DNA of 64,000 nt from contig OZ249436.1 in assembly GCA_965235115.1 (NCBI GenBank), positions 6,388,001 to 6,452,000 on the forward strand, in the 5' to 3' direction. The notes beneath the pieces were generated by a model, which worked only from the letters and a program-made list of their open reading frames with translations, did no database searches and was not told where the DNA came from. The translations under genes were made by a program, and so were the position numbers. Source of the DNA: Laetmonice hystrix. Lineage: Eukaryota. Numbering within the stretch: position 1 is the stretch's first letter; each line of letters begins with the position of its first letter. Positions 6,889 to 49,400 of the stretch are shown one piece after another.

Positions 6889-9800
6889 ATGGCGTTAACG
6901 ATGAGGGTGATATGCGGCGTGATTTTAATCTCAATATTACACTATGCTGTAGTGTATTGTGCACCAACTTTACCGGAGAAGCCTAAGACCGAAGGTAAAG
7001 TTTTGTGGTTGATCGCTAACGTTATTTTAGTACACCTCTCTGCTCTAACGTTAGGCCTAGGCCTAGGCTACTCGAACGCGTTATGAAAGATCTAGGATGG
7101 AACTGGAGTGGAAGTGCTTAGACTACTGACTACTGTTAGACGTCTAGTACTAGTACATTAACAATATAACGTTAGTAGGCCTACTGTAGTACTAGTAGGG
7201 CTACTGTCTGATGCAGACTGTAGCGTGTTCTGTTAATGTTATAATAACCATAATGTTCAGTGTTTAACAGTGTTACTGTTAGACTACTGACACTGTGACA
7301 GTGTTACTGTTACCGTACTGTGTTACTGTTAGCCTACTGAGTACTGTTGGACATGACACTACTTGCTAAGACACGACAGTTGAGTTGCTATTTTCCCGGA
7401 TTCCCAGTTAAAGTCTGACACGTGCACACTTCTACACCATTGTTGTTGGGCCCCGATTCATTTTGTTAATCGTATGACTCTCGCCGACTCGAAACTCGTC
7501 GTAATGCCCAGTGCACACTACGGTACACAATTTTCAGTCGGGATTGGCTATCTGAACAATTGCCGATAACTTGAGACTGACACTAGTGACAGTCGTGTAG
7601 TGTGCACCGGGCATAAGACTCCCGGTTGCCGACTTAAAACTCATCGTAACTTGTCTAAGTACCGTATCTAGTCGCCGAAAACTTTTAGGCCCTACCCTAA
7701 CTTCAGGCATACTTTCACGCACTTCCGTGAACGCACTTTGGCAACTTTGTCTTTGTGCACCTTGCAGCTGTTGCTGGGTGGATATCTTCTCTTGAATCAT
7801 TCTGACACTGCCTGACCCTTGACCTAAGAACAAGGTCAATCGGATGCATTAAAATAAAACTGCTATTCTTGTGCAGCAAAATAAGGCTGAGAGGCATAGG
7901 TGTGTGAAGTTAGGGCCTACAGTACAGTTAATATGTTTGGTTTGAACCTTGCATGCAGAAAAAAAAATTGTTTTACGAGTGCTCCCGCCGGCCAAAAGAA
8001 CGTTAACAACAGACAAGCGCGATTTCTTCTTGCAGACCACTTGAAAGTTTCAGTCTGAGTATTTTATGAGCATCAAAAATATAGATAAATTATAAGTATT
8101 ACCCCGGTACTTGACCTTTGACCGGGTAGCTGAGATGTTGGAAGAAGCCAATAACTTCTTTCTCCAATCAAAACTGAGTCATCCAGTATCATACCTGTCA
8201 TGTAAGGGGCTATGGTGATATTTGCTATGTGTGAGCTCAGGGCTGGTATGATTTAAATCAGTTGATTTAAATCATGATTTAAATCATGATTTAAATCACA
8301 GTAAAAAATTCAAAAAAATCATCAAAAATGATTTTTTTAAACAAAATCGAATGAAAAAGCAATATTTAAGACTGCAAGGGATGTCAAACATAGTATTATT
8401 AGACATACAGTACTAACTAGACCATTCTGACCAGATGTTTCCTGCCTGGATGCTCCTTATTAGTGATGGCAGAGAATAGGAGCCTCAGAGTTATCAGATT
8501 TTACCTCTTATCAGCTGGTAGAAATTTTTGCTGAGAGCAAGTAACAAACTCAACATAGCATACCCGGTAATAGAATTATTTTTAGGCCAATGTATTGTTT
8601 ATATTTAAAATATTGATAAATTCTCACTTTCAGAAACTAATAAATGTTTGTAGAATGGATATCTCATCAAGGCTTGATTTAAATCAAAAAAGTCGATTTA
8701 AATCAAAAAAATCAAAAATCATGATTTTTTACAAAAAAGTCGACTTTTTTACCAGCCCTGTGTGAGCTGGAAATGAGGCTCTGTTGGCCCCTGCTTGAAA
8801 TCCCTATATGGTTGCCTGTCATTTTGGATGATGCTATAGTAGGGACACCTGTGGTTGTGCTGTGTCCACTTGGAGCTGGGGACCAGAGAAAGTTCCGCGT
8901 TCGTCCAATCAGCTCCCTGTGCTATGACAGAAACATCATGGCCGCCTTCCTCTGAACTAGATAAACCATTGTCTCCAGACCCTTTTTCCGAGCGGCGAGC
9001 GACCTCTAGCGAGAAAAAAAGTCTGGTGATCAAGACTAGGTGCCATAATAATGCCAACAGCTTTGATGAAACACAGGGTTTGAATCAGTTCTCTTCTGTG
9101 TTCCACACTTGATGAGTGAAATAATGCTTATTTTTCGGCATGTGAACATAATATACACCACTTCCCTTGAATTTGTAACACATAGAAATCTCCAAAATGT
9201 GTTTTGTAATTTATCAACAGGATTACAAGACCCATCAGGACTAAAACATCAGGTAGAACCACAAACCCCAGGAGGACCTCAAAATCCAATGACACCACAA
9301 AACCACGCAGATCTGCCATCTCAAGCAGGCTCACAACCCCAACTAGGACCCCAAGGTCAAGTAAAACTGCCAAATCCAGCAGTACCACAAACCCCAGGAG
9401 GACCTCAAAATCCAATGAGATCACAAAACCACGCAGATCTGCCATCTCAAGCAGGCTCACAACCCCAACTAGGACCCCAAGGTCAAGTAAAACTGCCAAA
9501 TGCAGCAGTACCACAAACCCCAGGAGGACCTCAAAATCCAATGAGATCACAAAACCAAGGAGATCTCCCATCTCCAGCAGGCTCACAACCCCAACTAGGA
9601 CCCCAAGGTCAAGGAAAACTGCCAAATCCAGCAGTACCACAAACCCCAGGAGGACCGCAAAATCTAATGACACCACAAAACCATGCAGATCTGCCATCTC
9701 AAGCAGGCTCACAACCCCAACTAGGACCCCAAGGTCAAGGAAAACTGCCAAATGCAGCAGTACCACAAACCCCAGGAGGACCTCAAAATCCAATAACACC

Positions 9801-12800
9801 GCAAAACCAAGGAGATCTGCCATCTCAAGCAGGCTCACAACCCCAACTAGGACCCCAAGGTCAAGTAAAACTGCCAAATCGAGCAGTACCACAAACCCCA
9901 GGAGGACCTCAAAATCCAATGAGACCACAAAACCAAGCAGGTCTGCCATCTCAAGCAGACTCACAAACCCAACTAGGACCCCAAGGTCAAGGAAAACTGC
10001 CAAATCCAGCAGTACCACAAACCCCAGGAGGACCTCAAAATCCAATGACACCACAAAACCACGCAGATCTGCCATCTCAAGCAGGCTCACAACCCCAACT
10101 AGGACCCCAAGGTCAAGGAAAACTGCCAAATCCAGCAGTACCACAAACCCCAGGAGGACCTCAAAATCCAATGAGATCACAAAACCAAGCAGATCTGCCA
10201 TCTTCAGCAGGCTCACAACCCCAACTAGGACCCCAAGGTCAAGTAAAACTGCCAAATCCAGCAGTACCACAAACCCCAGGGGGACCTCAAAATCCAATGA
10301 GATCACAAAACCAAGGAGATCTCCCATCTCCAGCAGGCTCACAACCCCAACTAGGACCCCAAGGTCAACTGCCAAATCCACAAAACAAAGATAAACCGCA
10401 AAATTCAGCAGAACCACAAAACCGAGAGGGACCGCCAAATCCAATAAGACAACAAAACCAAGCAGATCTGCAAAAAAAACAAGTAGGACAGGAGAGCCCT
10501 CCCAAATATCCAGACCAGAATGGCAATCAGAACCAAGTACAAATACCAAATTCACAAGGACAAGGCAATTCTCAAGATCTACCAAGACTGCCAAATCTAG
10601 CAAATCTACCCACATCTTATGAACAGTCTAATTTGGAAAGGAATCCAGGTAAGTGATGGTGATCTTTTTATAAATTTACTATGTATACCAGGTAATTCTT
10701 TATTATATTTTTGATACACAGCCGAAGTTTTTCTCAAGTTCTATTGGCACTAGATCATCATCAAATTCAAAATGTCTGTTATTTATTCTATTCTGTAGTG
10801 TAGGCCTCGTAATGTTATTAGTATCAATTACAAAGATTCAAAATTCTATAAAGTTATGTGAATGTTGTCAGAATGAACAGGGTTGGAGTGCATTTTTCAA
10901 GACTCAAAAAACGTCTACTTTTTTTATTTTAGTGAATTCAATCGCATCATGGCAATGGTGGATGGGTTAGGTTTAAACCATATCAGATCTCTAGGTGATC
11001 AGTAAATATGAGTACACCATACCTATCATTGTAAGCATTTGAATTTTGAATCGTTTTATTTCCAGGTCAAGAGGGAAGCCAAGGTCAGAGGGTTCCTAAT
11101 TATGGTAAGTAATACTGGGTAATTAACATAACGTCTTCAATGGTTGATAACCTACAGGTAAAATTACAGGTTCACACACAGAATACTTCATGGGGAAGTG
11201 ACTGCGAGTTGATGACCTGTAAAATTACAGGGTCACACACAGAATACTTCATGGAGAAGTGACTGCGAGTTGATGACCTGTAAAATTACAGGTTCACACA
11301 CAGAATACTTCATGGGGAAGTGACTGCGAGTTGATGACCTGTAAAATTACAGGTTCACACACAGAATACTTCATGGGGAAGTGACTGCGAGTTGATGACC
11401 TGTAAAATTACAGGTTCACACACAGAATACTTCATGGGGAAGTGACTGCGAGTTGATGACCTGTAAAATTACAGGTTCACACACAGAATACTTCATGGGG
11501 AAGTGACTGCGAGTTGATGACCTGTAAAATTACAGGTTCACACACAGAATGCTTCATGGAGAAGTGACTGCGAGTTGATGACCTGTAAAATTACAGGTTC
11601 ACACACAGAATGCTTCATGGGGAAGTGACTGCGAGTTGATGACCTGTAAAATTACAGGTTCACACACAGAATACTTCATGGGGAAGTAAGTGACTGCTAG
11701 TGCCCTATCTGAAAGATGCTGTGACAAAAAAAAATCTGTCATGGCCATCTAACTTGTGAATCTGGGTCCCGTTTCTCATCTCCTTGTCGTGCGTTAACTG
11801 CTTGCTTGTCGTAAACTTAGAAATTAACGACAAGGTCTACGATACCCGTTTCTCATCCCTTGTCGTGCATTAGCTTGTCGTGCGCCTGCATATCACTGTT
11901 GCTAACGTCACAAATCTCTCAGCGGAGATCATTGTTCAATACAACGTCGTGACACAGTGAGCGTAAACCGGATGGAGCTGTTGTTTACGTTTACTGATTA
12001 TACGCAAATGCTGAATTTTTTGACAGTATAAATACTTACACTCCTAATCACGTCTGAAACAAATCATGTGATGACCTAAAAGTGTTTTTGCTTCGTTTTG
12101 TGTCTTTGCCGCCGACGATTGCGAAGCCCTCTAACATTAGAATGCAGCATCTATGCTCGACCCTAGTCGACTGTCAGTGAGATGCTTGGTCGGAATCAGC
12201 CACCCTACTTGGTATTTGGTTCTTTTTGGAGATTTTTGCCCATGCAATTCTTAAAAGAGGCCATATGGAGCCGAAAACATCAGTATTTACATGCCAGAGA
12301 AGTGGATTGACAAATTTTTGAGTCGTTGCGACAGCTTAACTACAGGGTCAGAGATGTCTTTATTTTGGCCTTGGTGGATGACACCATCATACAGGTTTTA
12401 ACACACGACAGGGGGTGAGAAACGCAATTTGTCTTTACTTGACAGTCTACGACAAACTTAACGCACGACAAGGGATGAGAAACGCACCCCTGTTGGCATC
12501 ACTTATAATATAAGCATTTCAGTGTCGAAACAATGTGCTTAGGACATGAGAAGGGCTCAGGTTAGACTTGGAGGAAACCTACAGTTGCTCTACAAAATAT
12601 GATGGTTATCTTTAAGACCAACTGAGCAAACACAATGTGATTTCTCGCAACTGTTGCACGATGGTTGCAGAACAGTCTGTCACAATAAGAATGAGTGGCC
12701 TGCAACAGCCTGCGACTGTTGCAGACATACAGTGCCAGAACTTCTGTGACTGTCGCAAGACTCCATTGTGTTGTGTGTAGATGAGCTGGGCTGAAATACT

Positions 12801-30800: not shown

Positions 30801-33800
30801 TATATAAAAACATAATGATAATCAACCAACTATCTCATATTCATTGTGAATAAGCACGTTTCTCACAGGCACCTGCAAAACAACGGACTGAGGATGAGAC
30901 GTAGTGGCGTCTTTGCGGATCTCAAGAATCTTCTAAACTTGTAAGTACAGATACGCAACTGAAATACGCAATTTTAAAGTTAATTTGTCTGATTAATTTA
31001 CTTATCGAAGGCCGTATTGTCTTGCTGTTATCAGCACTAAAAGTTATTACCTATCTTCGAGGAGAAAACGTTATAGGTTACGATTTTCATATTGAATGTA
31101 TGCATGGTTTTTTTTGCAGGGACCTAAGGGGCAATGAACTTATTCTTGTAAATGAAGCCGACATTAGTATCGTCAGAATGGCCAAACTGTGAGTATGAGT
31201 ATTAAAATTAACGGATTAATATCATAACCAAGGATGTTGTGTTCTCTAGGCACGCAATTAGCATTCGTTTTGATGCTATACACAGGGGATTCGTCAAGTT
31301 GAAAATGGAAGACAAATCAAAGACAACAAAATAGCAAAATCTGATTAATTGACGTGATCCACTTGCGTTGCGATGCTTCCGATTCACACCTTGCGCGGTC
31401 TTACGAGTTCTTCCGAGGACAAAATTCCAAATCGGGAATACACGCAAGCATTTTAAGTGAATCACGCATTACGAGAGTTCACGAGTGTTCCGAGGGCTTC
31501 AGGGGTCCGTTCCACTAAGCCCGAAAGACGTCTTTGAAATGGTCGCTGAGCCCAAAGAGGTCTTTGCGGCGACGGGTGTTCCACTAAGCTCCTATTCTTT
31601 AACATTGGCGCCGCAAAGACGTCTTTCCAAAGACGTCTTTGCTAAAGACGTCTTTCGTTAGTGGAACGGACCCCAGACGTCTTACGAGTGCCAGAGCGCT
31701 CTCGGGACCTCCTTACGAGCAGATCAAAAAGATATTATCAGAAGAGTGCATAGTGCGCGTGGCGTCGCGTAAGATATGGGAAGATGCATAAAGAGTTCGT
31801 AAGCACTCGGAAAAGCGCGGAAGGTCTAAAGCGAACCCAAAAACTTCTTCCAATTCTTGTTCCTCACCTTCGCGGGTGCTTTCGCGGGTTACGCAAGCCT
31901 ACGATTCCTTACGCGGCCTAAAGCGTGAAGCGGCCTAAAGCGGTGTTTCCATTAACGCGGCTGCGGCCCGGCTGCGGTCCGGACACGGGTACGGCTGATA
32001 AAGCGGTGTTTCCATTAACGCGGCTGCGGCCCGGCTGCGGCCCGGCTGCGGTCCGGGCACGGGTACGGCTGATATCGCACGTCGTTGTTTTTAATGTAGG
32101 TGTTTCCATTAATGCGATCTCCGTACGGGGCCCGTACGGGCGTCGCATGCGGCTGTTCCCGATCGCGTCATGGAGCGATTCGAGAACAGCCGCAGATGAG
32201 CCGCATGAGGGATCCCCTTGATCCTAGGTGGTCACGTGCATGTTGTTCACTCAAAAAATGGATGGCACCATGCCTCACGTTGTCAGCAAGCAAGATATCC
32301 AAAAACTTAACGAAAAACTTATCGATTCGGCAGGTGTATGGCCTATGACCTTATACCAACAACATTGAGACGCAGCCGGGACGCACCTTTAAAAACAACG
32401 ACGTGTCTTATCAGCCGTACCCGTGCCCGCACCGCAGCCGGGCCGCAGCCGCGTTAATGGAAACACCGCTTTAAGCGGCCCGTCCGGGCGTCGCATGCGG
32501 CTCTTCCCGATCGCGTCATGGAGCGATTCGAGCACAGCCGCAGATGAGCCGCATGAGGGATCCCCTTGATCCTAGGTGGTCACGTGCATGTTCTTCCGCA
32601 TCCGACGCCCGGACGGGCGCCGTACGGAGATCGCATTAATGGAAACACTTACATTAAAAACAACGACGTGCGATATCAGCCGTACCCGTGCCCGGACCGC
32701 AGCCGGACCGCAGCCGCGTTAATGGAAACACCGCTTTATCAGCCGTACCCGTGCCCGGACCGCAGCCGGGCCGCAGCCGCGTTAATGGAAACACCGCTTT
32801 AAGCGGTGTTTCCATTAACGCGGCTGCGGTCCGGGCACGGGTACGGCTGATATCGTACGTCGTTGTTTTTAATGTAGGTGTTTCCATTAATGCGATCTCC
32901 ATACGGGGCCCGTACGGGCGTCGCATGCGGCTCTTCCCGATCGCGTCATGGAGCGATTCGAGCACAGCCGCAGACGAGCCGCATGAGGGATCCCCTTGAT
33001 CCTAGGTGGTCACGTGCATGTTCTTCACTCAAAAAAGGGATGGCACCATGCCTCACGTGGTCAGCAAGCAAGATATCCAAAAACTTAACAAAAAACTTAT
33101 AGATTCGGCACGTGGCTGTCCTATGACTCTATACCAACAGCATTGGGACGCAGCCGGGCCGCACCTTTAAAAACAACGACGTGCCATATCAGCCGTACCC
33201 GTGCCCGCACCGCAGCCGGGCCGCAGCCGCGTTAATGGAAACACCGCTTAAAGCGGTGTTTCCATCGCATGCGACGTCCGGACGGGCGCCGTACGGAGAT
33301 CGCATTAATGGAAACACTTACATTAAAAACAACGACGTGCGATATCAGCCGTACCCGTGCCCGGACCGCAGCCGGGCCGCAGCCGCGTTAATGGAAACAC
33401 CGCTTTACGAGTACTTTTACGTACTTCCGAAGCTTCCGAGAGAGAAAAAGTCGTAGACGCGCAGAAGCCATCGCAACGCAAGTGGATCACGTCCATTAGT
33501 CTTGATCACCAGACCCTTGTGAATAGGACCTTTTACCTTTTGAATTCGATTATGTTTTCTTCGTTGTAATCACACCCAGGGCCGTACTCGGGGGGGGGGG
33601 GGCGGGAACCCCCTGGCGTTCATTGGAAAAATATTGTAAATTGCATCAGAATATACCATTTCAAAATTAGAATTCAAAATTTTCCGAAGAAGCTACCTCT
33701 CTGCCCTGACACCTTCCCCGTTCATAGTGGGAATTGTAGATCCTCTAACCCTCACAATGACAAAATATGGACTCCACGTGTTACTATATATAGCTACTGG

Positions 33801-36800
33801 GTCTGTTATGTAATGCTAGGGGTGAAACGGAAGTCTGCTCGTGTGGTGTATCGTGGCGTATCGGCCGAGTGCAGCGCTGCAGTCTCTCCACGTGTCTGGG
33901 TAAGTCAAGGTCACTCCAGACATTATCTAGGCCAGCTTGCCCTAGATAAACGCCCCGTTAACTGCAGATTCTCTCAACTTTCTGCATATCCATCTTTCTA
34001 TGGCGTAAAGGTATCATATGTAGCAAAACCTCGTCCAATGGGAGCAGTCATTATATCTAGGCCTTGGATGACACCAGGCCCTGAATTTTCTGTTACTGCA
34101 GGTCTCCCGCCTATCTGTAGACAATTACAGATTAACACTTTTTCAAGGCCCCATAAGACTGCAGTAACATAATTGCATCTAATTTCGTTATAATGCCGGT
34201 ATGTGTGCATTCCATGTCTCTGTCTTCTTTTTGATGTTGCTTTATTATAACACTTAATTACGGGCTCATTATGCTTACTTTGAAATCATTCATATTTGAT
34301 GGAGATATCGTGACTCACCAAAAGATTATAGATCTATACACTCGCCTTGTTTCAGAGGAATTTCTTGCTGGTGTGATTGAGGCAGCCGACCGAGGCGATG
34401 GAAGTAAGTAGGCGCCAACTTAGCCTATTGTGCATGGCGATAGATCTAAGGCGTATGACTTTAGAATGAAGTAGACGCTCGCCCCCAAGAGGGTTCATGC
34501 CATTCAATCTGTTAATTAGCGTAATTAGGGTGCGTAGTTGGGCAGTGAACTTGATCAAGTAACCTTGTCCACAGTAAGGCAGAGACGCCAATATAAGGGT
34601 GGGGTATTCCTGAATCGGCGTTTTTTTCTAAGCAACGCTCCTGTTGATAAGCCATAAATCTTGCTCTAGCTGCAGTATGTGTTGTGCTAGCCCGGTTGAA
34701 CTACACCCTATTGGTCGATAGCCATAGCGTGACTCAGGTCCATATCCGCACCGTGGCCGAGATGCTTGACGTCGTTACGTCAGCCAACATAACGTTTCAT
34801 CCCTTCTTGACGTCATGGTTATTGGATACCATCGACAGTGTTCTCAAGGTCTACCCGGAGCAGTTTAATGACAGGAATGACAACACGTCCCAAAGGTAGG
34901 CCCACAGGTCTATATTGTCATGGCGGCCTCATGCTGGTCAAACAAAGTGGGTATAGGTCTGTTATAGGTGATAATCAGGGCCGGGGGAGGGGGGGGCAGC
35001 AGATCTAATCACGGTGAAAAAGGTGCCCTCTTTACGAGCAGATTCCACTTTTAAGGGTGTGAATTCATCCTTGTGATCAGGGTGCCCTTCTGACCGTAGA
35101 TCTGCCTCCGCCAGCAAATTTAGCTATCGCCCGCCCCTGATTATTCATGCAGTTGGTAGGCCTATACCTATACCTATACCTATACCTATACCATTGGTCG
35201 GGGCTAACAACCGATAACAGAACATCGCTATGAAAACCAGGTCATGTCCATTTTGAATAGGACATGCTGAGCTGTTTGAAATTTGAAATTTTATGCGCTA
35301 GGGAGTAGGACAGGTGAGTGGGGGATTAAGGTATATAGGCCTATATGCTATTAATAGGCGCCTGATATTAGACTGTGTCGTTTAAGTGAAATTTATGCTG
35401 ATTGAAAATGGAGTATCTATTTGATCTTGAATTATTTGCACTTACAAGTATAAAGCAAGGTTCTTTTAATTCTATTAAATACAGATTCCTTAAAAGTTTG
35501 GACCGCCTTGGGAGGAACCTGCAACTGAGAGAAAACGATACTTCTGTGACCTTCAAAAAACAGGAGATTGCTCTGACTGTTGTAAAGTTGTCTCCCGGGA
35601 TGCCGGGACTCCATTATGCTGTCGAGGAACCTGGTGGCAACAGTACTGACAATTTCATCGTAAGTACGCTAACGTTATAGCTGACAAACATCAAAGAGTT
35701 TAGAAGTAGACCCCCTCGGTCGTCCCAAATGCCAGACCGTCTTTGCCGCACCCTTATATCTTACTACAGATTCTCCGACATAATAACGATGGAATCGTAT
35801 CGAGATGACCTGCTCCATGTAGATGTGTTTCCTAATCACAGTATGGCATCTATAGAGTCAAATAAACGCAATAAATCTATAAATCTACGGGTCAAATAAC
35901 GGCAATAGAATTATCAAGGTACCAGGGCCCGGTTTTTTGGTTGAGCTTGAGTTAAGTTTGAGACGAAAACCTTGTCTCAAGCTCACGGCCCTATGAGTCG
36001 ACTCATAGGGCCGTGAGCTTGAAACGAGGTTTTCGTCTCAAACTTGACTCAAGCTCAACCAAAAAACCGGGCCCTATATGCATTCGGCCATAGGGCCATC
36101 ATTGGGCCATCTTCGGCTTTGAAGGAAGAAAAGTTGACAATTTCAGTGAATACATACTACTTCCGGTGACAGACTCCGACTGTCATTTAGATGTCATTCA
36201 ATTCTAATCTACACTTGTCCTGTGTCAGATCAATGTAAACACCCTCGACAACCGGACAGTATGGACCGACCAGCCCACTAATGGCCGGCCACTGTCTCTG
36301 GCTGCCGTCGAGGTAACACCATCAGTCTTACAACAGTATGGAGGCAATGCTTATTTTCTCGTCTACAAGTCGCTTGCCCTGTTTAAGGTGAGATATTTTG
36401 GCCAAGTAATTAGGCATTCATTCTGAGTTAACTTAGATAATACCAAGAATCTGAATGTTGGCTTTCGTTACCGTTCTAGTGAGACCCTTCTAGCCAGCCT
36501 ATAGGCTACTGTCTGGTAAAGTATCGAATTGCTGGACCTTTTTCAAAATCCCATAAATGATCAAAACCAAAACGTCATGAATTCGTGCGTAACTATATAG
36601 GCCTACGGAATTTTGGAAAGGTGTTAGCCCTTCTCAGATGTTGGGTGCCCCCCTTCCCAGCCTCGCTGGCTATACCGGGGGTTTAAAAATTTAGACCCGC
36701 TGATGTGATAGTGTCATCATATCGCCTCAGGATGAGAACACTACGGACAGTGATATACCCGTCAACAGTTTAGTTATTGGTGCATCAGTTGGTACCACTA

Positions 36801-39670
36801 CACGAGAAACCAACCAACTCTCCGAACACGTCACCATACAGTTACGTCACAACGTGGTAAAGTACATACATAATCATCAAAGCCATCACCTAATCCATAG
36901 AGGTATATCTTTAATTAATTCAACTTTAAATAGGCTTCCAACTCCTCAATGTGGTATATATTGTAGGCAACGTTTGACATTTTGTCCTTACAGGTTCCCG
37001 AGGCGCCCTCTGGCTGTGTGTTCTGGGACTTCTCTCTGGCCGGCGGGCAGGGTGGCTGGTCTAACCAAGGCTGTAGAAACGTTAATCAAACTATTTACTC
37101 GACCATCTGTCAGTGTGACCACCTCACCAATTTCGCCCTTCTTTTGGTAGGTATACCAAATTACGAATTATGGATGCTGTTGGTTGGGCCCATTTAAAAT
37201 AGAATCGAAGTGAGCCTTGAGAAAATAGGCGATGACATAAGATCAATGCATGGGCAGATGCGCCCCGCCCTCTGGGTCCGCCCATAGACCCACATATTAC
37301 CTGTATACTGGTCTAATATATGCAGATATAGGCCCACCTCTACTCTGTTTTTGGTACTCATTCATACGATGTATGATATTGCCGTAGGATGTCGAGGTAA
37401 GGATGGGAGAAACGGCCGTAGCCGTAACGCAGGGTCTCACCTATGTGTCTTACATCGGCTGTGGTCTGTCCATCATCGGCCTCCTGGCAGTTTTAATAAC
37501 ACACCTGGTTTTCGGGTAAGGCAGGTTTAGGCGCCTATGTACCTCACCAGAAAACTCCGAAAGTTAAGAAATCTGGAGCCTTAAGCTACATCGTCATCGT
37601 AGTCTTCTCCTCCTTTTGATTTTCCTGTCGGAGGTCATGAGTTCTTGTAAAGAAGTAACTCCAGCGGTAAATTGCAGGAAGTTTCGTCGCCAGCCGTCAA
37701 TTCGGATACTTTTACATTTGTGCGTGGCACTGCTTGGACTGTGTATTGGGTTTATCGTGATAGCTAACGTTGAAGGCAATATCATATGCAAGGTAAGTGG
37801 CCAGCCTAGAGACCTCCTAGCTGCTGAAACACTGCTCAATTCCTCTCCCTGATGAACTCGGGGCAAACACTGAGTAAACGCTGGGGGAATTGAAGAGGGC
37901 CTGTTTTGGGGACCTGCCGAAGTTGCTTGATTCTACTTCTGTCACTGCTAAGTAGTTCTGCAGTAGGCCTACGTTACTCGGAATACTTCAGTGCTAACAG
38001 TAGTTCTGTGGTATGCCTACCGTTACTCGGTTTTCTTACACAAGGTATCCGCTGCTGTGACTCACTTTTTCCTGCTGGCAACCTTCACGTGGATGGTGGT
38101 TGGAGCATATCACCTCTTCAGGAGTATCGTCATCATCGACATTGGCCTCGACCAAGGCAGATTTGTCCTCAAGAGCTCTTTTATCGCCTGGGGCAAGTTG
38201 TACACATCCTCATCATTGATGGGTTTTGTTTTTGTGCCTAGAAAAGTATAACTTTCCTTTGTATATAAATATAGGCCACGAACAAAGTTGGCCTAAATAT
38301 ATATATCGAACCCAATCTACTTAAAATTAAATATTGGTATTTCGCGTCTCTCTCGGCTGTGCCAGTGCGGTCTACGCTTCATACCTAGTGTGGGGCGCAT
38401 GCGAAATAACTTATCAAATTTTAATTAGATTGATATCAAGTCATTCTGTTTAATGTTAGTTTACTTACCATTTTGTTTGGTACACGTACATAGGCCTACC
38501 TGGTTATAAACAAGTTCTGGCAGGGGAGCGTGTCCTTACGTCTCCTCATTCATTAGATGTAAGTTGCCCTTTTGATTTTTGCTGTAAGAAAATCGGTAGG
38601 GCCTATATCTGTGTTCCATTTCAGGCTTGCCGGTTCTGGTTGTTATAGCGACTGGCGCAAGTCGTTCCGATAATTATGGGGCGCAGGCTCTCGGCATGTG
38701 AGTTACTTTGTTACCTCAGTCTTACTACGATTTATTAAGTGGCTGTGATTTTTACTATTTCAAAACTGGAAGCATTCTCCTCCAGATCACTTGGTCCTGT
38801 GTGTCAATGTCCTCATCACTTGGTCCTGTGTGTCAATGTCCTCATCACTTGGTCCTGTGTGTCAATGTCCTCATCACTTGGTCCTGTGTGTCAATGTCCT
38901 CATCACTTGGTCCTGTGTGTCAATGTCCTCATCACTTGGTCCTGTGTGTCAATGTCCTCATCACTTGGTCCTGTGTGTCAATGTCCTCTTGTAGATGCTG
39001 GTTGTCACGGATACCATTATACGCGGCGTGTCTGGCTCCTGCTGCACTTACACTTCTCATCAACTTCGCCATATTTATCGCCATCATTGTCCGTCAATGT
39101 ACCCAGAAGAAACGGTTCAGCGGTGACATGAGCTCCTCCTCCAGTCGTAGGATGGGACTCAAAGGTTACATGACGGTAACCGTCTTACTCGGCCTCACCT
39201 GGCTATTCGCTTTCTTCAGCTTTGGAGGAGCCTCGGATGTGTTCGACTTTTTGTTTGTTATTTTCAACAGTCTACAAGGCCTGTTCATTAGTTTTACACA
39301 GTGCTTTCTCAGGAAAGACGTCAGGGATGCATGGAAGGCTCTCTGCTGTAAACCTCCTAGAAGGCCATCGACAAAGGTCAGTGTTGTAGAGAAGTTAAAA
39401 AAGAAACCTTCGATTCTGCCCACCTTACTGTGTTTTAAGCTGATTTGGCTAAAGGCCCCGATCACTTTAATTTGAATCGGCCTTACATTTTTATAGTCTT
39501 CTCATTTCATATCGTGACAACAGTCTCCAAAGGAAGAAACTGATTTCGACGCAGGCGGGACAGGACGACAGCAGTCCACAGACGAGCTATCCGATATTGA
39601 CGAGGAAGTAGGCAGTATCTCGTCGTCCATGCACACGCCGACAGAGCTTGTCAGTTCCAATGACACTTAA
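27836..39670 (+). CDS. Adhesion GPCR with LRR-NT, 8 LRRs, GAIN/GPS domain and secretin-like 7TM
   Basis: Exons 27836-27996 (signal, VDCSQRRLKEIP), seven 72-nt LRR exons (28120, 28348, 28628, 28924, 29960, 30640, 30869 starts), 31120-31188, 33820-33899, 34356-34403, 34691-34895, 35485-35659, 36229-36387, 36731-36856, 36994-37146 (CVFWD..GGWSNQGC..CQCDHLTNFALLL), 37388-37515, 37678-37792, 38045-38192, 38625-38697, 38995-39376 (LLGLTWLF..FNSLQGLFI), 39524-39670. Phases fit; the LRR-CT exon choice and the last acceptor are uncertain. Confidence 0.88.
29207..29813. repeat. Intronic minisatellite, 41 bp x about 15
   Basis: Unit CCACAATACATCGTGTTTCTACAGTATCACAGTTTATTAAA. Confidence 0.95.
30110..30311. 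mobile_element. MITE with about 23-bp inverted ends
   Basis: GCTAAGCAGGGCTACGGTGGCCC ... GGGCTGCCGTAGCCCTGCTTAGC. Confidence 0.55.
31503..31673. mobile_element. Nested Harbinger-like MITE with CAG TSD
   Basis: GGGTCCGTTCCACTAA...TTAGTGGAACGGACCC flanked by CAG on both sides; AAAGACGTCTTT palindromes inside. Confidence 0.75.
31939..33404. mobile_element. Tandem/nested cluster of one Harbinger-like MITE family
   Basis: TIR AGCGGTGTTTCCATTAACGCGGCTGCGG...; units 32002-32470, 32474-32735, 32802-33248, 33252-33404 plus extra TIRs at 31939-32000 and 32737-32798, joined by single TTA/TAA triplets. Confidence 0.8.
35924..36075. mobile_element. Fold-back palindromic MITE derivative (152 bp)
   Basis: 76-bp arms with 3 mismatches and no spacer, centre GAGTC|GACTC; the same end (CCAAAAAACCGGGCCCT) occurs at about 52087-52104. 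Confidence 0.75.
38786..38988. repeat. Minisatellite, 29 bp x 7, abutting a 3' splice site
   Basis: ATCACTTGGTCCTGTGTGTCAATGTCCTC x7 followed by TTGTAG|exon 38995. Confidence 0.95.
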
Positions 39671-43481: not shown

Positions 43482-46400
43482 TTAGATTGCAATGAAAACG
43501 CCTTTCAGATAGAGTGCTATCGATACAATGAGCCAGAGGGCAGCACCATACATGTTCATGGCCAGCAATGTAGCATGGTTGGACGCCACGTGAAACTGGA
43601 TCGGGAAACACCGGTGTAGGAATTCATGACCCAGGTATACGAGGATAGAGTTCATACCTGTAATATAAGATTGCACAATTTCTGATTCTCACCGTACAAA
43701 ATATTCTTACTCCCCTCAGAGATTATATTTTAATAGAACAAAATCTATACCAAAGTTACTTACATGTTTTAAATAATGCTTGTCCCTATGCTGAATATTG
43801 ACTAGAAACCATTGTCTTGTAACTAACCTGGGTAGAAGAAAGGAGTTCCGCTCCAGACGTGCCACACATCACAGAGTAGGAAACAGACAATGAGTAAGAC
43901 GAACGCCATGCTCGCCAGGGCCAGGATGAAAGACACCGACCTGATAACACAAGGTCATCCAAAATCAAGTCAGGCTACCTCAAAAAAATAGGTGGGTTTT
44001 TTCACTGAAATAATTGAGATGTTGAATTCTTGAATGAAAAATTTGGAAAAGGACACTAAGTTTTATAGACCTACACCTTGGGAATTCAGATGTTAGAATA
44101 TGATAAAATTATGCACAATATCAATCTAACGACAGGATACTTACCACAAGTTTTTATTGACAGGGATCCACCCATCATTCTGGGAGAACTTACACAGGAC
44201 CCCTGCCACAAGACCCTACAAAAGGTACACATTTAAAATACATTACATGTTGTAATACAACGGGCAGGATTTCAAGGGTCAGGCATTGAAGATCATTCAC
44301 ATTACATCTGCTTCCCAAAAGTTCAGATTTACAAACTTGTCAAGGACAAACTTCCACTTGACTTTATTATACACAACTTATCACTACACTCACTAAGGTT
44401 TGCCTGATAAGCTATAAACACTAGGAGGTGATTTTTCTAACATGACCAATCTTGACAATTATACTGACAGTGATTAATGCCCACACGAGCCATCGACTGA
44501 GACGAGATACTGTGCCCTGGTATGTGGTGAATATCTTTCCAGCCTGAAGGAATAAAAAATAGATTAATAAATTATTGATATGTGGGCTGTCAGTCCCTCC
44601 AAACTGTAATATGTCTATAAATCTATAACGCACGGACATGAAATTATGGTTTTCTAATCCTTCACACCTGGAAGCACTTCATCAATTCATGTACAACTGA
44701 AACTAAAAGTTTGATATTCTTTATGCAGCCTTTGACTTATTCTAGTCTCCTCTGGAACATGAGCAGGTATGTACTGATGGTCAACATCAGTCCTGATCAC
44801 AAGGTATTCTATGAGGAGATCTACCAGTTGTCATACCTGCAAACCCAGGAAACAAATGAAGATAGAAGTCAATGTTCCAAGAGTTCCCTCTGGATCATAT
44901 GGAGTTTCAGTCAGATATATTTTCTGGAAACAAATCACTCATCACATCATTATCATCATCATCATTATCGCCATTATCATCATATAGCTGCTATACAAGT
45001 GTACTGTTACACAGTAGATGTGAGGTGTCACAGTGTGGGGAATTACAAGTTCGATCAATCTCAGTCTTTCCACTAACAAGATCCTATGAAGAACAGGGTG
45101 ATAGAAAAGGTTCCCCACTACAGATAGCTGGTGACCTGTACTTACCCTACAGGTGGGGGTTTTATAGATGTGGCTGTCACCGAACAACACCCTGTCTATG
45201 TACCCTGCTGCCCCGCCAGTACAGTTCCAGTGGCTGCCATTCTCATGAAGTCCTCCAGGTCCTAGGTAACCCCTGCCAGGTCAAACAATCAATCATATAC
45301 AGTCCTCCAGGTCCTAGGTAACCCCTGCCAGGTCAAACAATCAATCATATTGAGTCCTCCAGGTCCTAGGTAACCCCTGCCAGGTCAAACAATCAATAAT
45401 ATTGGAGTCCTCCAGGTCCTAGGTAACCCCTGCCAGGTCAAACAATCAATCATATTGAGTCCTCCAGGTCCTAGGTAACCCCTGCCAGGTCAAACAATCA
45501 ATCATATACAGTCCTCCCGGTCCTAGGTAACCCCTGCCAGGTCAAACAATCAATCATATTGAGTCCTCCAGGTCCTAGGTAACCCCTGCCAGGTCAAACA
45601 ATCAATCATATTGAGTCCTCCCAGCCCTAGGTAACCCCTGCCAGGTCAAACAATCAATCACATTGAGTCCTCCAGGTCCTAGGTAACCCCTGCCAGGTCA
45701 AACAATCAATCATATTGAGTCCTCCAGGTCCTAGGTAACCCCTGCCAGGTCAAATTTCATATCAAATCATATCATTTCATAAGTTTCATATCAACCTTAC
45801 CTTGGACAGTTAGGAGTTTCATATCACCCTTACCTTGGACAGTTGGGAGTTTCATATCAACCTTACCTTGGTCAGTTAGGAGTTTCATATCACCCTTACC
45901 TTGGACAGTTGGGAGTTTCATATCACCCTTACCTTGGTCAGTTGGGAGTTTCATCAACCTTACCTTGGACAGTTAGCAGTTTCACATCACACTTACCTTA
46001 GACAGTTGGGAGTTTCATATCACCCTTACCTTGGTCAGTTAGCAGTTTCATATCACCCTTACCTTGGTCAGTTGGGAGTTTCATATCACCCTTACCTTGG
46101 TCAGTTGGGAGTTTCATATCACCCTTACCTTGGTCAGTTGGGAGTTTCATATCACCCTTACCTTGGTCAGTTAGGAGTTTCACATCACACTTACCTTGGA
46201 CAGTTAGGGACTGGCAGTAAGAATGTCAGGAAACAGTGGATTGCAAGAATTGACAAAGCAACAAGCCACTCGGCCCAGGATGATAGGACATCTCGTACTG
46301 GTGCCCACCACTTAGCCTGTATCAAACCAATACCAAGAATATTACATTATCAGCCCAAGTATACTATCACTCAAATCGGACTGTACTTACTAGGAGACGA

Positions 46401-49400
46401 ACAGATTACAGATTCTCATATAATGTTGACCAGAAAACTTACCTGATGGTAATCTGCAGCCTGAGCGAAGGCTACCTCCAGCATTGCAATCACAAAGTAG
46501 GACACAGCCAGCCGCTGTAGTACTCCTGGCACACGCAACTCATGGATGTTCACCAAAGCTGGATGGGTTGAAGTGAATGAATCATTTTACTATGTCAGAA
46601 AAGATCATATCAATATGGAGACCTCTTTCTTCCAATTCAAACTTTCTCAAATCGTACTGTTGTTTATGTAATTTTCTTAAATTCCTTCACTTGGACGACA
46701 GAGACAATACGTTGGTTCACAGTAAGCTACCTTTACTGCCCATGTTGCTGATCATGATTCCAAATCCAAAGAGAATGACTGTCCTCCTGATGACCTTCAA
46801 GGCCAGCTGGTGTCTCTGGAAACCTCGCCGCAGGAGGCTCCTGAACGCCAGTGCGATCGACGTACCCATGATGAAGGTGAACCTCAACAACACAACACCA
46901 TCCTAACTACACACATCTGAGATACAAACTGGGCAATTTAACTAAACAATCTCTCCGCAATTTTCTGAGTACTTCCTTTACTTAATAAATAAATAAAATT
47001 AATGCTCTCTTTGATGTGTGATGATACGCTATTTATAAACACAGCATGATGATTGTTTCAAGGTTTATAGATGCTTGTTAAAATCTCACCACGGGAAAAC
47101 CAGGTCGGCCACAGTCAGTCCGTTCCATGGAGAGTGTTTGAAGAACCAGTAACTCCCACCACCATAATTGACAAAGATCATGATCAGCAAGCACAATCTG
47201 GCAAAGACAAAGGCGTAAGTCTCAGGCATAATATGGGAATCAAAGATAAAGGGGTAAGTCTCAGGCATAATATGGGAATCAAAGATAAAGGGGTAAGTCT
47301 CAGGCATAATATGGGAATCAAAGATAAAGGGGTAAGTCTCAGGCATAATATGGGAATCAAAGACAAAGGGGTAAGTCTCAGGCATAATATGGGAATCAAA
47401 GACAAAGGGGTAAGTCTCGGGCATAATATGGGAATCAAAGATAAAGGGGTAAGTCTCAGGCATAATATGGGAATCAAAGATAAAGGGGTAAGTCTCAGGC
47501 ATAATATGGGAATCAAAGACAAAGGGGTAAGTCTCAGGCATAATATGGGAATCAAAGACAACATTCTGCAATGATCACATGGCAGACATACTGTGTATGA
47601 GTACAATAAGTGTTTCCCGACACTCACCCTCTGAAAGTATCCACTGAGCGAAGTCGAGGTTTGGTGATTAGAACAGGCCGGTCACCACCAGAGTGCCCTG
47701 GCTGTGTATCCTCTTGCCCAGAATGGGTCGTTCCAAGATCCTGATTCAATGGCATGATAGAATTATACAGCCCTATGTATTAAGACTGGAAGCTTTTGAC
47801 TAATACATGCACAATTATTATTGATTGAATAAAATTCTTCTTTTTTTATTTTTTATTCATTACAAAACTGTTCTTCTAAGACATACATGTATATGCCCAA
47901 TAAACCTCACTATTAAGTTATTGTTAAGGAGATGCTTGGCAAAGTTCTTGATTCCACTACCCCCTGCAGATATAACTCACTGAGTCAATAAGTCCTTCAG
48001 TGTTACGGCACTGCAGTAGACGTCGTAAAAGTTTCCTCCTACAGAACACAATGTGTACTAATATTATAAAGTGCTGTTTCAAACACATGTCTCATCTCGA
48101 AAGATTAAAAAGAAACACACCCAGACACACACCCTTGTTGGCAGTGAGGAAATCAGTTATCCATACTTCCAGCACTAGGATAACATTTACTGACGGTACA
48201 AACCTCTTTACTTCAGGTTTGTGCGGTCTGTATATAATAAAATCTACTGTTAAAGCATCATACATTATACCAGTACTTTGTCAGGGCTTGGAGTCGGTAG
48301 AGCTCACTGTCACATTCAGTTCATACCTGTGTATTTGATATGCAGCCGTCCAAACCACAGAGAGAAGAATAATAAGACCTATTGCCACATAGATAGCTGC
48401 AATATCAATATTAGCATGAGAAGCAGAGTTTTCACCAGAAATATAGGAAAGCATTGTATTTAGACCCACCTCCCCTTTAGCTCACCATATCCTCCTACTC
48501 ATACATCTAGATTATTAATAATAGAGCGGTCAGTTTAACAGCCACCTCGCCAATCTTTCTGGGAAGGCTTCCTTGGTCACTTCCCACTAGTAGAATGACG
48601 GAATCTAAGGTGAATCTGCCTATCTTCCTCCATAAGGTAAGCTGACCATTTCCTAAACATAGCACCCAAAAATTTAAGTGTCCTCTTATGCCATTACACT
48701 TTAATGGGAACCCTGAGACATCATTTTTTGACATTTAGAGTACTCACTAGTCTTGATTATGATAAGTGCTACATTTCAATCTGTTTACAAAATTGTAGAT
48801 TATGGCTTGCAATTACACAATGGTACTTACGTAAAAAGGAATCAGTCGGAGGTTTGATGGGAACAAAAACACAGGTGTAACTAATCACCTTGGAAACCAC
48901 CAACTGATATTGACCATACTCTCCAAAATGGTAGTCAACACTGAAAGCATAGCATCATCCAAGAAGTTGTATTATCATGCTACTGTTTTCGACTTGTTTT
49001 TAACAGTTTGACAAACATGCAAATTTATAATAATAATTATGCTCCGATATTTTACATAGATCAGTAACTTAGTATTCTAACATCTCTTTTCATATGAAAT
49101 TAAGCTAACTTATATTATTTTTTCATAATTTACCATTAACAATCTACACAGATCATTACTGATAAACTTTTGTACCTGCATATGTTTTCATATGACGTCT
49201 CGTTCCTTTGGTGCACTACGTACATGTTGGTATGCCACCTCGTGTCTACCTGAGCAAGTCCCGTACTGTTTGGTTGTACGGTCATAAGTCTAACCGGTGG
49301 ACACTGTTGGAGAGCACAAACACAGACAGATAGAATTTTTTTCCGTACTGGCATATTTCATGGCAACGTTACCACTGGGGGTCTACTGGGGGGGGGGCAG

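Follow-up and report, generated by a model that had tools for sequence, protein, structure and literature searches.

Two minisatellites spanning the borders of one HGSNAT intron in Laetmonice hystrix, and its probable splicing between the outermost sites

Introduction

In a 64,000-nt window of Laetmonice hystrix DNA (the whole stretch analyzed), one intron of an HGSNAT gene carries a repeat array at each border, one multiplying its donor and the other its acceptor, and this locus raises the question of how the right pair of sites is chosen. An earlier note on this DNA had offered three answers: selection of the outermost sites, stepwise “Russian-doll” removal starting from a short inner intron, or loss of many transcripts to nonsense-mediated decay (NMD), such that repeat number would tune expression. 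Recursive and nested splicing systems use multiple internal donors and acceptors. The Adh3 repeat was first reported by Canestro (2002).

Minisatellites whose units lie across exon–intron borders have been named “mirages” in amphioxus, where they are described in Adh3, the globins BflGb6 and BflGb9, troponin C and PGBD5 (PMC3087553; PMC3902484). There, 5′ and 3′ borders can both be affected, and Adh3 data together with globin RT-PCR suggest undisturbed splicing, an acceptor-side case included (PMC3087553). In human F7, intron 7 contains a 37-bp VNTR with 5–9 identical donors, the most upstream of which is the only one used; the same paper reports the same for lamin B2 and PDGF, use of the proximal copy of duplicated globin sites in one study and, in human 6-16 and CBS intron 13, use of two decoy donors beside the true donor (PMC1557585, Borensztajn 2006).

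Results

Eleven exons joined by GT-AG introns throughout yield a 420-aa frame without internal stop for the 3′ two-thirds of the gene (Table 1). The downstream exon of the intron under study retrieved HGSNAT proteins (751 of 755 candidates at E <= 0.001), with up to 81% identity to lophotrochozoan HGSNAT, and has a single match in the 627-Mb genome, while tblastn links the exons into a chain. As Pfam matched none of three short HGSNAT exons, the identity rests on the protein matches, the tblastn chain and the exon model, which agree with the name that the gene had first been given. In a quick one-gene tree of 51 proteins, Lamellibrachia and Ridgeia group with this HGSNAT (SH-aLRT 95) in an annelid group (97), and Branchiostoma is distant, with an identity of 52–53%; an amphioxus host was rejected on both counts. 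The gene is an intact HGSNAT, placed among annelids by that tree.

The anatomy first described, a 922-nt intron with 13 donors, 10 acceptors and a 59-nt GT...AG core, was borne out by minus-strand splice-site mapping, which puts the intron in phase 2, and by TRF. The first intron bases of the donors run from 46194 and 46161 to 45800 in steps of 33 nt (one step of 31), the last intron bases of the acceptors from 45742 to 45273 in steps of 52 nt (one of 53), and TRF reports the arrays as 33 nt × 13.0 with 90% matches and 52 nt × 9.7 with 95% matches. The dinucleotide is intact in every inner copy (GT in 12/12, AG in 9/9), which makes 21 surplus splice signals beyond the true pair (12 decoy donors and 9 decoy acceptors), and AG/GT is present at all 13 donor copies. 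The feature is a pair of independent minisatellites, each spanning one border of the intron.

Table 1. Positions in the window of the HGSNAT exons, splice sites and repeat arrays
Feature	Position	Strand	Remarks
HGSNAT exons (n = 11)	43482..47740	-	3′ two-thirds of gene; 5′ exons outside the model
Upstream HGSNAT exon	46195..46316	-	122 nt; final 14 nt form the exonic portion of the donor repeat
Donor-spanning minisatellite	45782..46210	-	33 nt × 13; about 14 nt of exon end and 19 nt of intron start
True donor	46194	-	In copy 1 of the donor array; 12 decoys behind
Whole intron	45273..46194	-	922 nt, phase 2; sole open-frame pairing out of 130
Core, innermost donor to innermost acceptor	45742..45800	-	59 nt, GT...AG; about 27 nt outside both arrays
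Acceptor-spanning minisatellite	45249..45754	-	52 nt × 9.7; intron end and about 24 nt of exon start
True acceptor	45273	-	In last copy of the acceptor array; 9 decoys before
Downstream HGSNAT exon	45146..45272	-	127 nt

We compared the assembly with contigs of three public runs, which come from one sample, possibly the assembly's own. The interior of the donor array (45830–45925) showed 0 differences, and the acceptor unit was collapsed, with a depth of 416–434 against 51–59 beside the upstream exon, about 7–8 times, a contig depth that does not equal a copy number. Because the contigs match the donor interior and collapse the acceptor unit at high depth, an assembly artefact, which had been entertained at the outset, is an unlikely source of the arrays. 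The contigs are without cover at 45760–45809 and the 59-nt core is known from the assembly alone; allele copy number is seen solely through collapsed contigs of this one sample, in which no piece spans either array. In contigs of runs X1 and X2, the exonic portion of donor copy 1 has a synonymous allele at position 46206, identical to a variant found in 7 of the 12 decoys, and the conserved cysteine codon is a stop in 7/12 decoys; sequence exchange between decoys and the exon at the first donor copy would pose a mutational hazard.

Translation of all 130 donor–acceptor pairings left a single open, in-frame junction, that of the outermost donor with the outermost acceptor. Every pairing of an inner donor (120/120) reaches a stop one codon past the exon end, and the outer donor joined to an inner acceptor reaches one within the downstream exon in 9/9 cases, and the earlier note's description is accurate; the premature stops of the 129 wrong pairings all lie upstream of further introns. 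There is nothing unusual in the in-frame stop that follows the first donor, since the donor consensus in phase 2 yields it: of 192 donors called in kinase genes of this genome (see below), 130 begin GTAA, GTAG or GTGA, any of which would give an equal stop in that phase.

The two borders differ in what distinguishes the true site. With a matrix trained on this genome, the score is 12.6 for the outer donor and 9.5 for 11 of the 12 decoys, and the pairing energy with a U1 motif is −12.5 for the former against −10.0 kcal/mol; donor 7 equals the true donor. Acceptors 2–10 all score 9.8. Use of acceptor 10 gives an exon of 127 nt and use of the others exons of 179–596 nt, among which acceptors 9 and 8 would yield ordinary lengths (179 and 231 nt). 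Given this tie and these ordinary exons, the choice of acceptor has no explanation at the level of the sequence.

We then surveyed such repeats around kinase exons in 80 stretches of 10 kb each, with 400 kb adjoining the window and another 400 kb distributed over 18 large contigs as comparison DNA. Minisatellite coverage is 11.9% in the window, 20.7% in the neighboring 400 kb, 11.0% in the 800 kb near kinase genes and 16.1% in the 400 kb on the large contigs. From 202 kinase exon matches (246 at a looser cut-off), with those inside arrays left out, 361 splice sites were called (192 donors and 169 acceptors). An array spans 7 of the 361 (8 were flagged, one being a miscall on inspection), namely 4/192 donors and 3/169 acceptors, and the true site occupies the outermost copy in 7/7. 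Spanning by chance, as gauged at random positions, amounts to 0.96%, which makes the observed sites about twofold enriched (p = 0.06); abutting arrays, at 0.65% of random positions, were seen at 9–10 of the 361 sites, about fourfold (p = 0.0002 for 10). The placement of arrays relative to splice sites is not wholly random. Splice motifs in repeat units near kinase genes are about twofold in excess (22 donors against 13.2 ± 3.7 and 11 acceptors against 5.3 ± 1.9), an excess that for donor motifs is absent in the neighboring DNA (6 against 12.3) and in the evenly spread DNA (7 against 8.9).

Pfam supported 11 of 19 candidate flanking exons, and 8 of the 80 stretches hold between them 11 mirages with inner GT or AG intact and flanking exons backed by Pfam or the kinase profile. 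Kinase genes L100 and L088 have 42 and 29 identical decoy donors, and L073 has four border-spanning arrays. In 25 hand-picked arrays, consisting of the two HGSNAT arrays and 23 others, some without exon confirmation, the outer site is equal to its decoys in 15, stronger in 8 and weaker in 2; systematic weakening of decoys is not a general rule. Border-spanning mirages cluster within genes: L073 (878–6664), L100 (1218–3917), L088 (5932–9125) and L043 (3271–7536) contain two to four arrays each. One donor array of L073, with a 29-nt unit, runs to about 95 copies, of which just 13 keep GT intact.

Under independent placement, the product of the donor and acceptor rates predicts double mirages at 3.7e-4 per intron, or 37–74 cases genome-wide if 100,000–200,000 introns are assumed. 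In 1.66 Mb, 14 donor-then-acceptor array pairs were flagged, the HGSNAT intron included, and 5 of the 14 were resolved, also counting HGSNAT; those in L043, L070, L088 and L100 have an exon between the arrays. With these 5/14 resolved, no second double mirage was confirmed in the 1.66 Mb, as the expected rate of 3.7e-4 per intron would explain.

Other repeats accompany these in the window and beyond. A third HGSNAT array (47202–47558, 39 nt × 9.2) stops a few bases short of the acceptor at 47198; its units include the pyrimidine tract and leave out the terminal AG. On the plus strand, a gene at 36704–39475, which we take to resemble an adhesion-type GPCR, holds a 29 nt × 7 array (38786–38988) adjoining an apparent acceptor. 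An array of 61 nt × 8.7 (11158–11687) lies directly behind an apparent donor, has AG and GT motifs in its units and ends donor-like in its last copy. A 126-nt repeat × 8.8 (9258–10368) forms part of a 528-codon open frame, with a Pro/Gln/Gly-rich unit of 42 residues. At 31930–33407 we found GC-rich interleaved inverted repeats with arms of up to 121 nt and 94–98% complementarity, and at 35924–36075 a 76-nt inverted repeat (96%) that has perfectly abutting arms and looks like a miniature transposon. Elsewhere in the genome (G000:C4:25253376-25298170), some nine kinase-exon matches about 5.5 kb apart form a tandem array of gene segments.

Discussion

In both HGSNAT arrays the repeat unit lies across an exon–intron border and the outermost copy contains the true site, the gene is intact (one open pairing out of 130; 420-aa frame), and we regard the double array as an unusually tidy example of a described, ordinary class. 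As in the amphioxus mirages, the border-spanning units repeat GT or AG with the true site outermost, and the unit sizes overlap (33 and 52 nt in HGSNAT, 10–72 bp in Adh3). The host differs, an annelid by the one-gene tree against a cephalochordate, and in HGSNAT both borders of one intron are amplified, while the passages on amphioxus mirages describe no such case. The F7 donor unit is close in size (37 against 33 nt) and likewise repeats the donor in each copy; the F7-type cases are donor-side only, whereas HGSNAT has an acceptor array too, which 5′-to-3′ scanning alone leaves unexplained. Intronic minisatellites have been described in earthworm, the border-spanning type being absent from the passages of that paper (PMC12783039). 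In searches of the open-access literature we found no annelid mirage and no paper on choosing the last among nine acceptors of equal score.

The best explanation, to which we give a probability of about 0.68, is that two near-neutral mirages arose independently on one intron, which is spliced from the outermost donor to the outermost acceptor. A short duplication across each border would have grown by slippage or unequal exchange, and would have been tolerated because the surplus copies fall on the intron side. The intron would be removed in a single ordinary step, from first donor to last acceptor. The first donor is probably favored by being the most upstream, as in human F7, and by matching the consensus better than 11 of the 12 decoys; upstream-first selection of the F7 kind would suffice on the donor side, and weakened decoys are not required, given the 15/25 arrays with equal sites. 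Scanning from the 5′ side, in contrast, would choose an inner acceptor in HGSNAT. Here exon definition is the likely rule, because acceptor 10 gives the 127-nt exon and the others longer ones: the last acceptor, nearest the next donor and joined to the full exon, would be chosen, and this is the least certain step of the model. Acceptor selection is the step most prone to leakage, and any leakage to inner sites would lead to premature stops and products that are likely degraded, leaving both arrays near-neutral. Of the three answers first offered, selection of the outermost sites is the supported one, with experimental precedents in F7 and in amphioxus Adh3 and globins, and we infer it for HGSNAT.

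The main rival to this outermost-to-outermost splicing is leaky choice at a cost, in which inner sites (mainly acceptors 9 and 8, donors 2 and 7) would be used noticeably, NMD would destroy the products and repeat number would shift HGSNAT output as a side effect. The nine acceptors of equal score speak for such leakage, as do the premature stops ahead of later introns in all 129 wrong pairings and the leak to decoy donors in human 6-16 and CBS (PMC1557585); the amphioxus RT-PCR would, moreover, probably be blind to degraded products. However, many conserved kinase genes bear as many identical decoys or more, selection should not tolerate a large cost in a gene with four arrays such as L073, and decoys are unweakened in 15 of 25 arrays, which makes appreciable leakage unlikely. 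Tuning of expression through NMD by repeat number is likewise less likely than first proposed, because such arrays are common in ordinary conserved genes here. A bolder version, which we consider improbable, sees in the double array a splicing trap of natural variability, in which the nine acceptors would compete measurably, re-splicing would bring partial rescue and the two copy numbers would set HGSNAT dosage, the arrays being by now indispensable, since a core of 59 nt would no longer be long enough for splicing.

Nested or repeated splicing, either as stepwise peeling from inner pairs or as ratcheting through the AG/GT of the donor copies, is geometrically possible, as outer donors and acceptors survive each splice of an inner pair, and AG/GT stands at every donor copy. 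Internal donors and acceptors, with AG/GT at the donor copies, are what the intron shares with recursive splicing. Unlike in those systems, the inner AG/GT of HGSNAT has neither pyrimidine tract nor acceptor score ahead: as an acceptor, the AG ahead of the inner donors scores between −3.8 and 0.7, whereas the lower quartile of true acceptors is 7.3, and no strong acceptor was found just before an internal donor. Nor does the inner intron appear to be of spliceable size. Among 89 kinase introns the shortest is 101 nt (median 341 nt) and the other nine modeled HGSNAT introns measure 126–430 nt, so that both the core and the next pairing (92 nt) fall below the measured minimum and the core is shorter than 98/98 other introns, in a small sample beside which rare short introns may exist. 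Strict one-by-one peeling stops at donor 4 and acceptor 10 with a dead product, random re-splicing succeeds in 23% of cases, and, again unlike recursive or nested systems, intermediates that use an outermost site early are dead ends. One-sided arrays elsewhere cannot nest, and an outermost-site rule is therefore required anyway. The “Russian-doll” route, for which the core appears too short and the inner AG too poor, finds no support, and we consider it very improbable. The core had been put forward as the ancestral intron, but below the minimum intron size it hardly qualifies as one that works or is complete, and it is more likely a remnant.

Just as improbable is a coupling of the arrays by RNA or DNA structure, in which the donor region would pair with the downstream exon start and thereby mask decoys or seed both duplications: that duplex reaches −14.6 kcal/mol, a value also found in one of the 89 kinase introns and in 1.25% of random pairs, but the test is post hoc, −16.6 kcal/mol is reached by another HGSNAT intron that has no repeats across its borders, the whole 922-nt intron folds worse than 20/20 shuffles (z = +2.95) and pairing in the model is equally strong for the true donor and the innermost decoy, so that intron folding and duplex comparisons leave structural masking unsupported.

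As a discovery the intron is of small value, the repeat class being already described and this genome being rich in it. Its value is that of a reagent, one 922-nt intron in which 13 donors and 10 acceptors compete with a single productive outcome. The F7 scanning model leaves acceptor choice uncovered, and the HGSNAT intron offers a compact system for asking how, among nine acceptors of equal score, the last is picked. If the splicing-trap reading were true, annelid mirages would constitute a mutable, genome-wide layer controlling expression.
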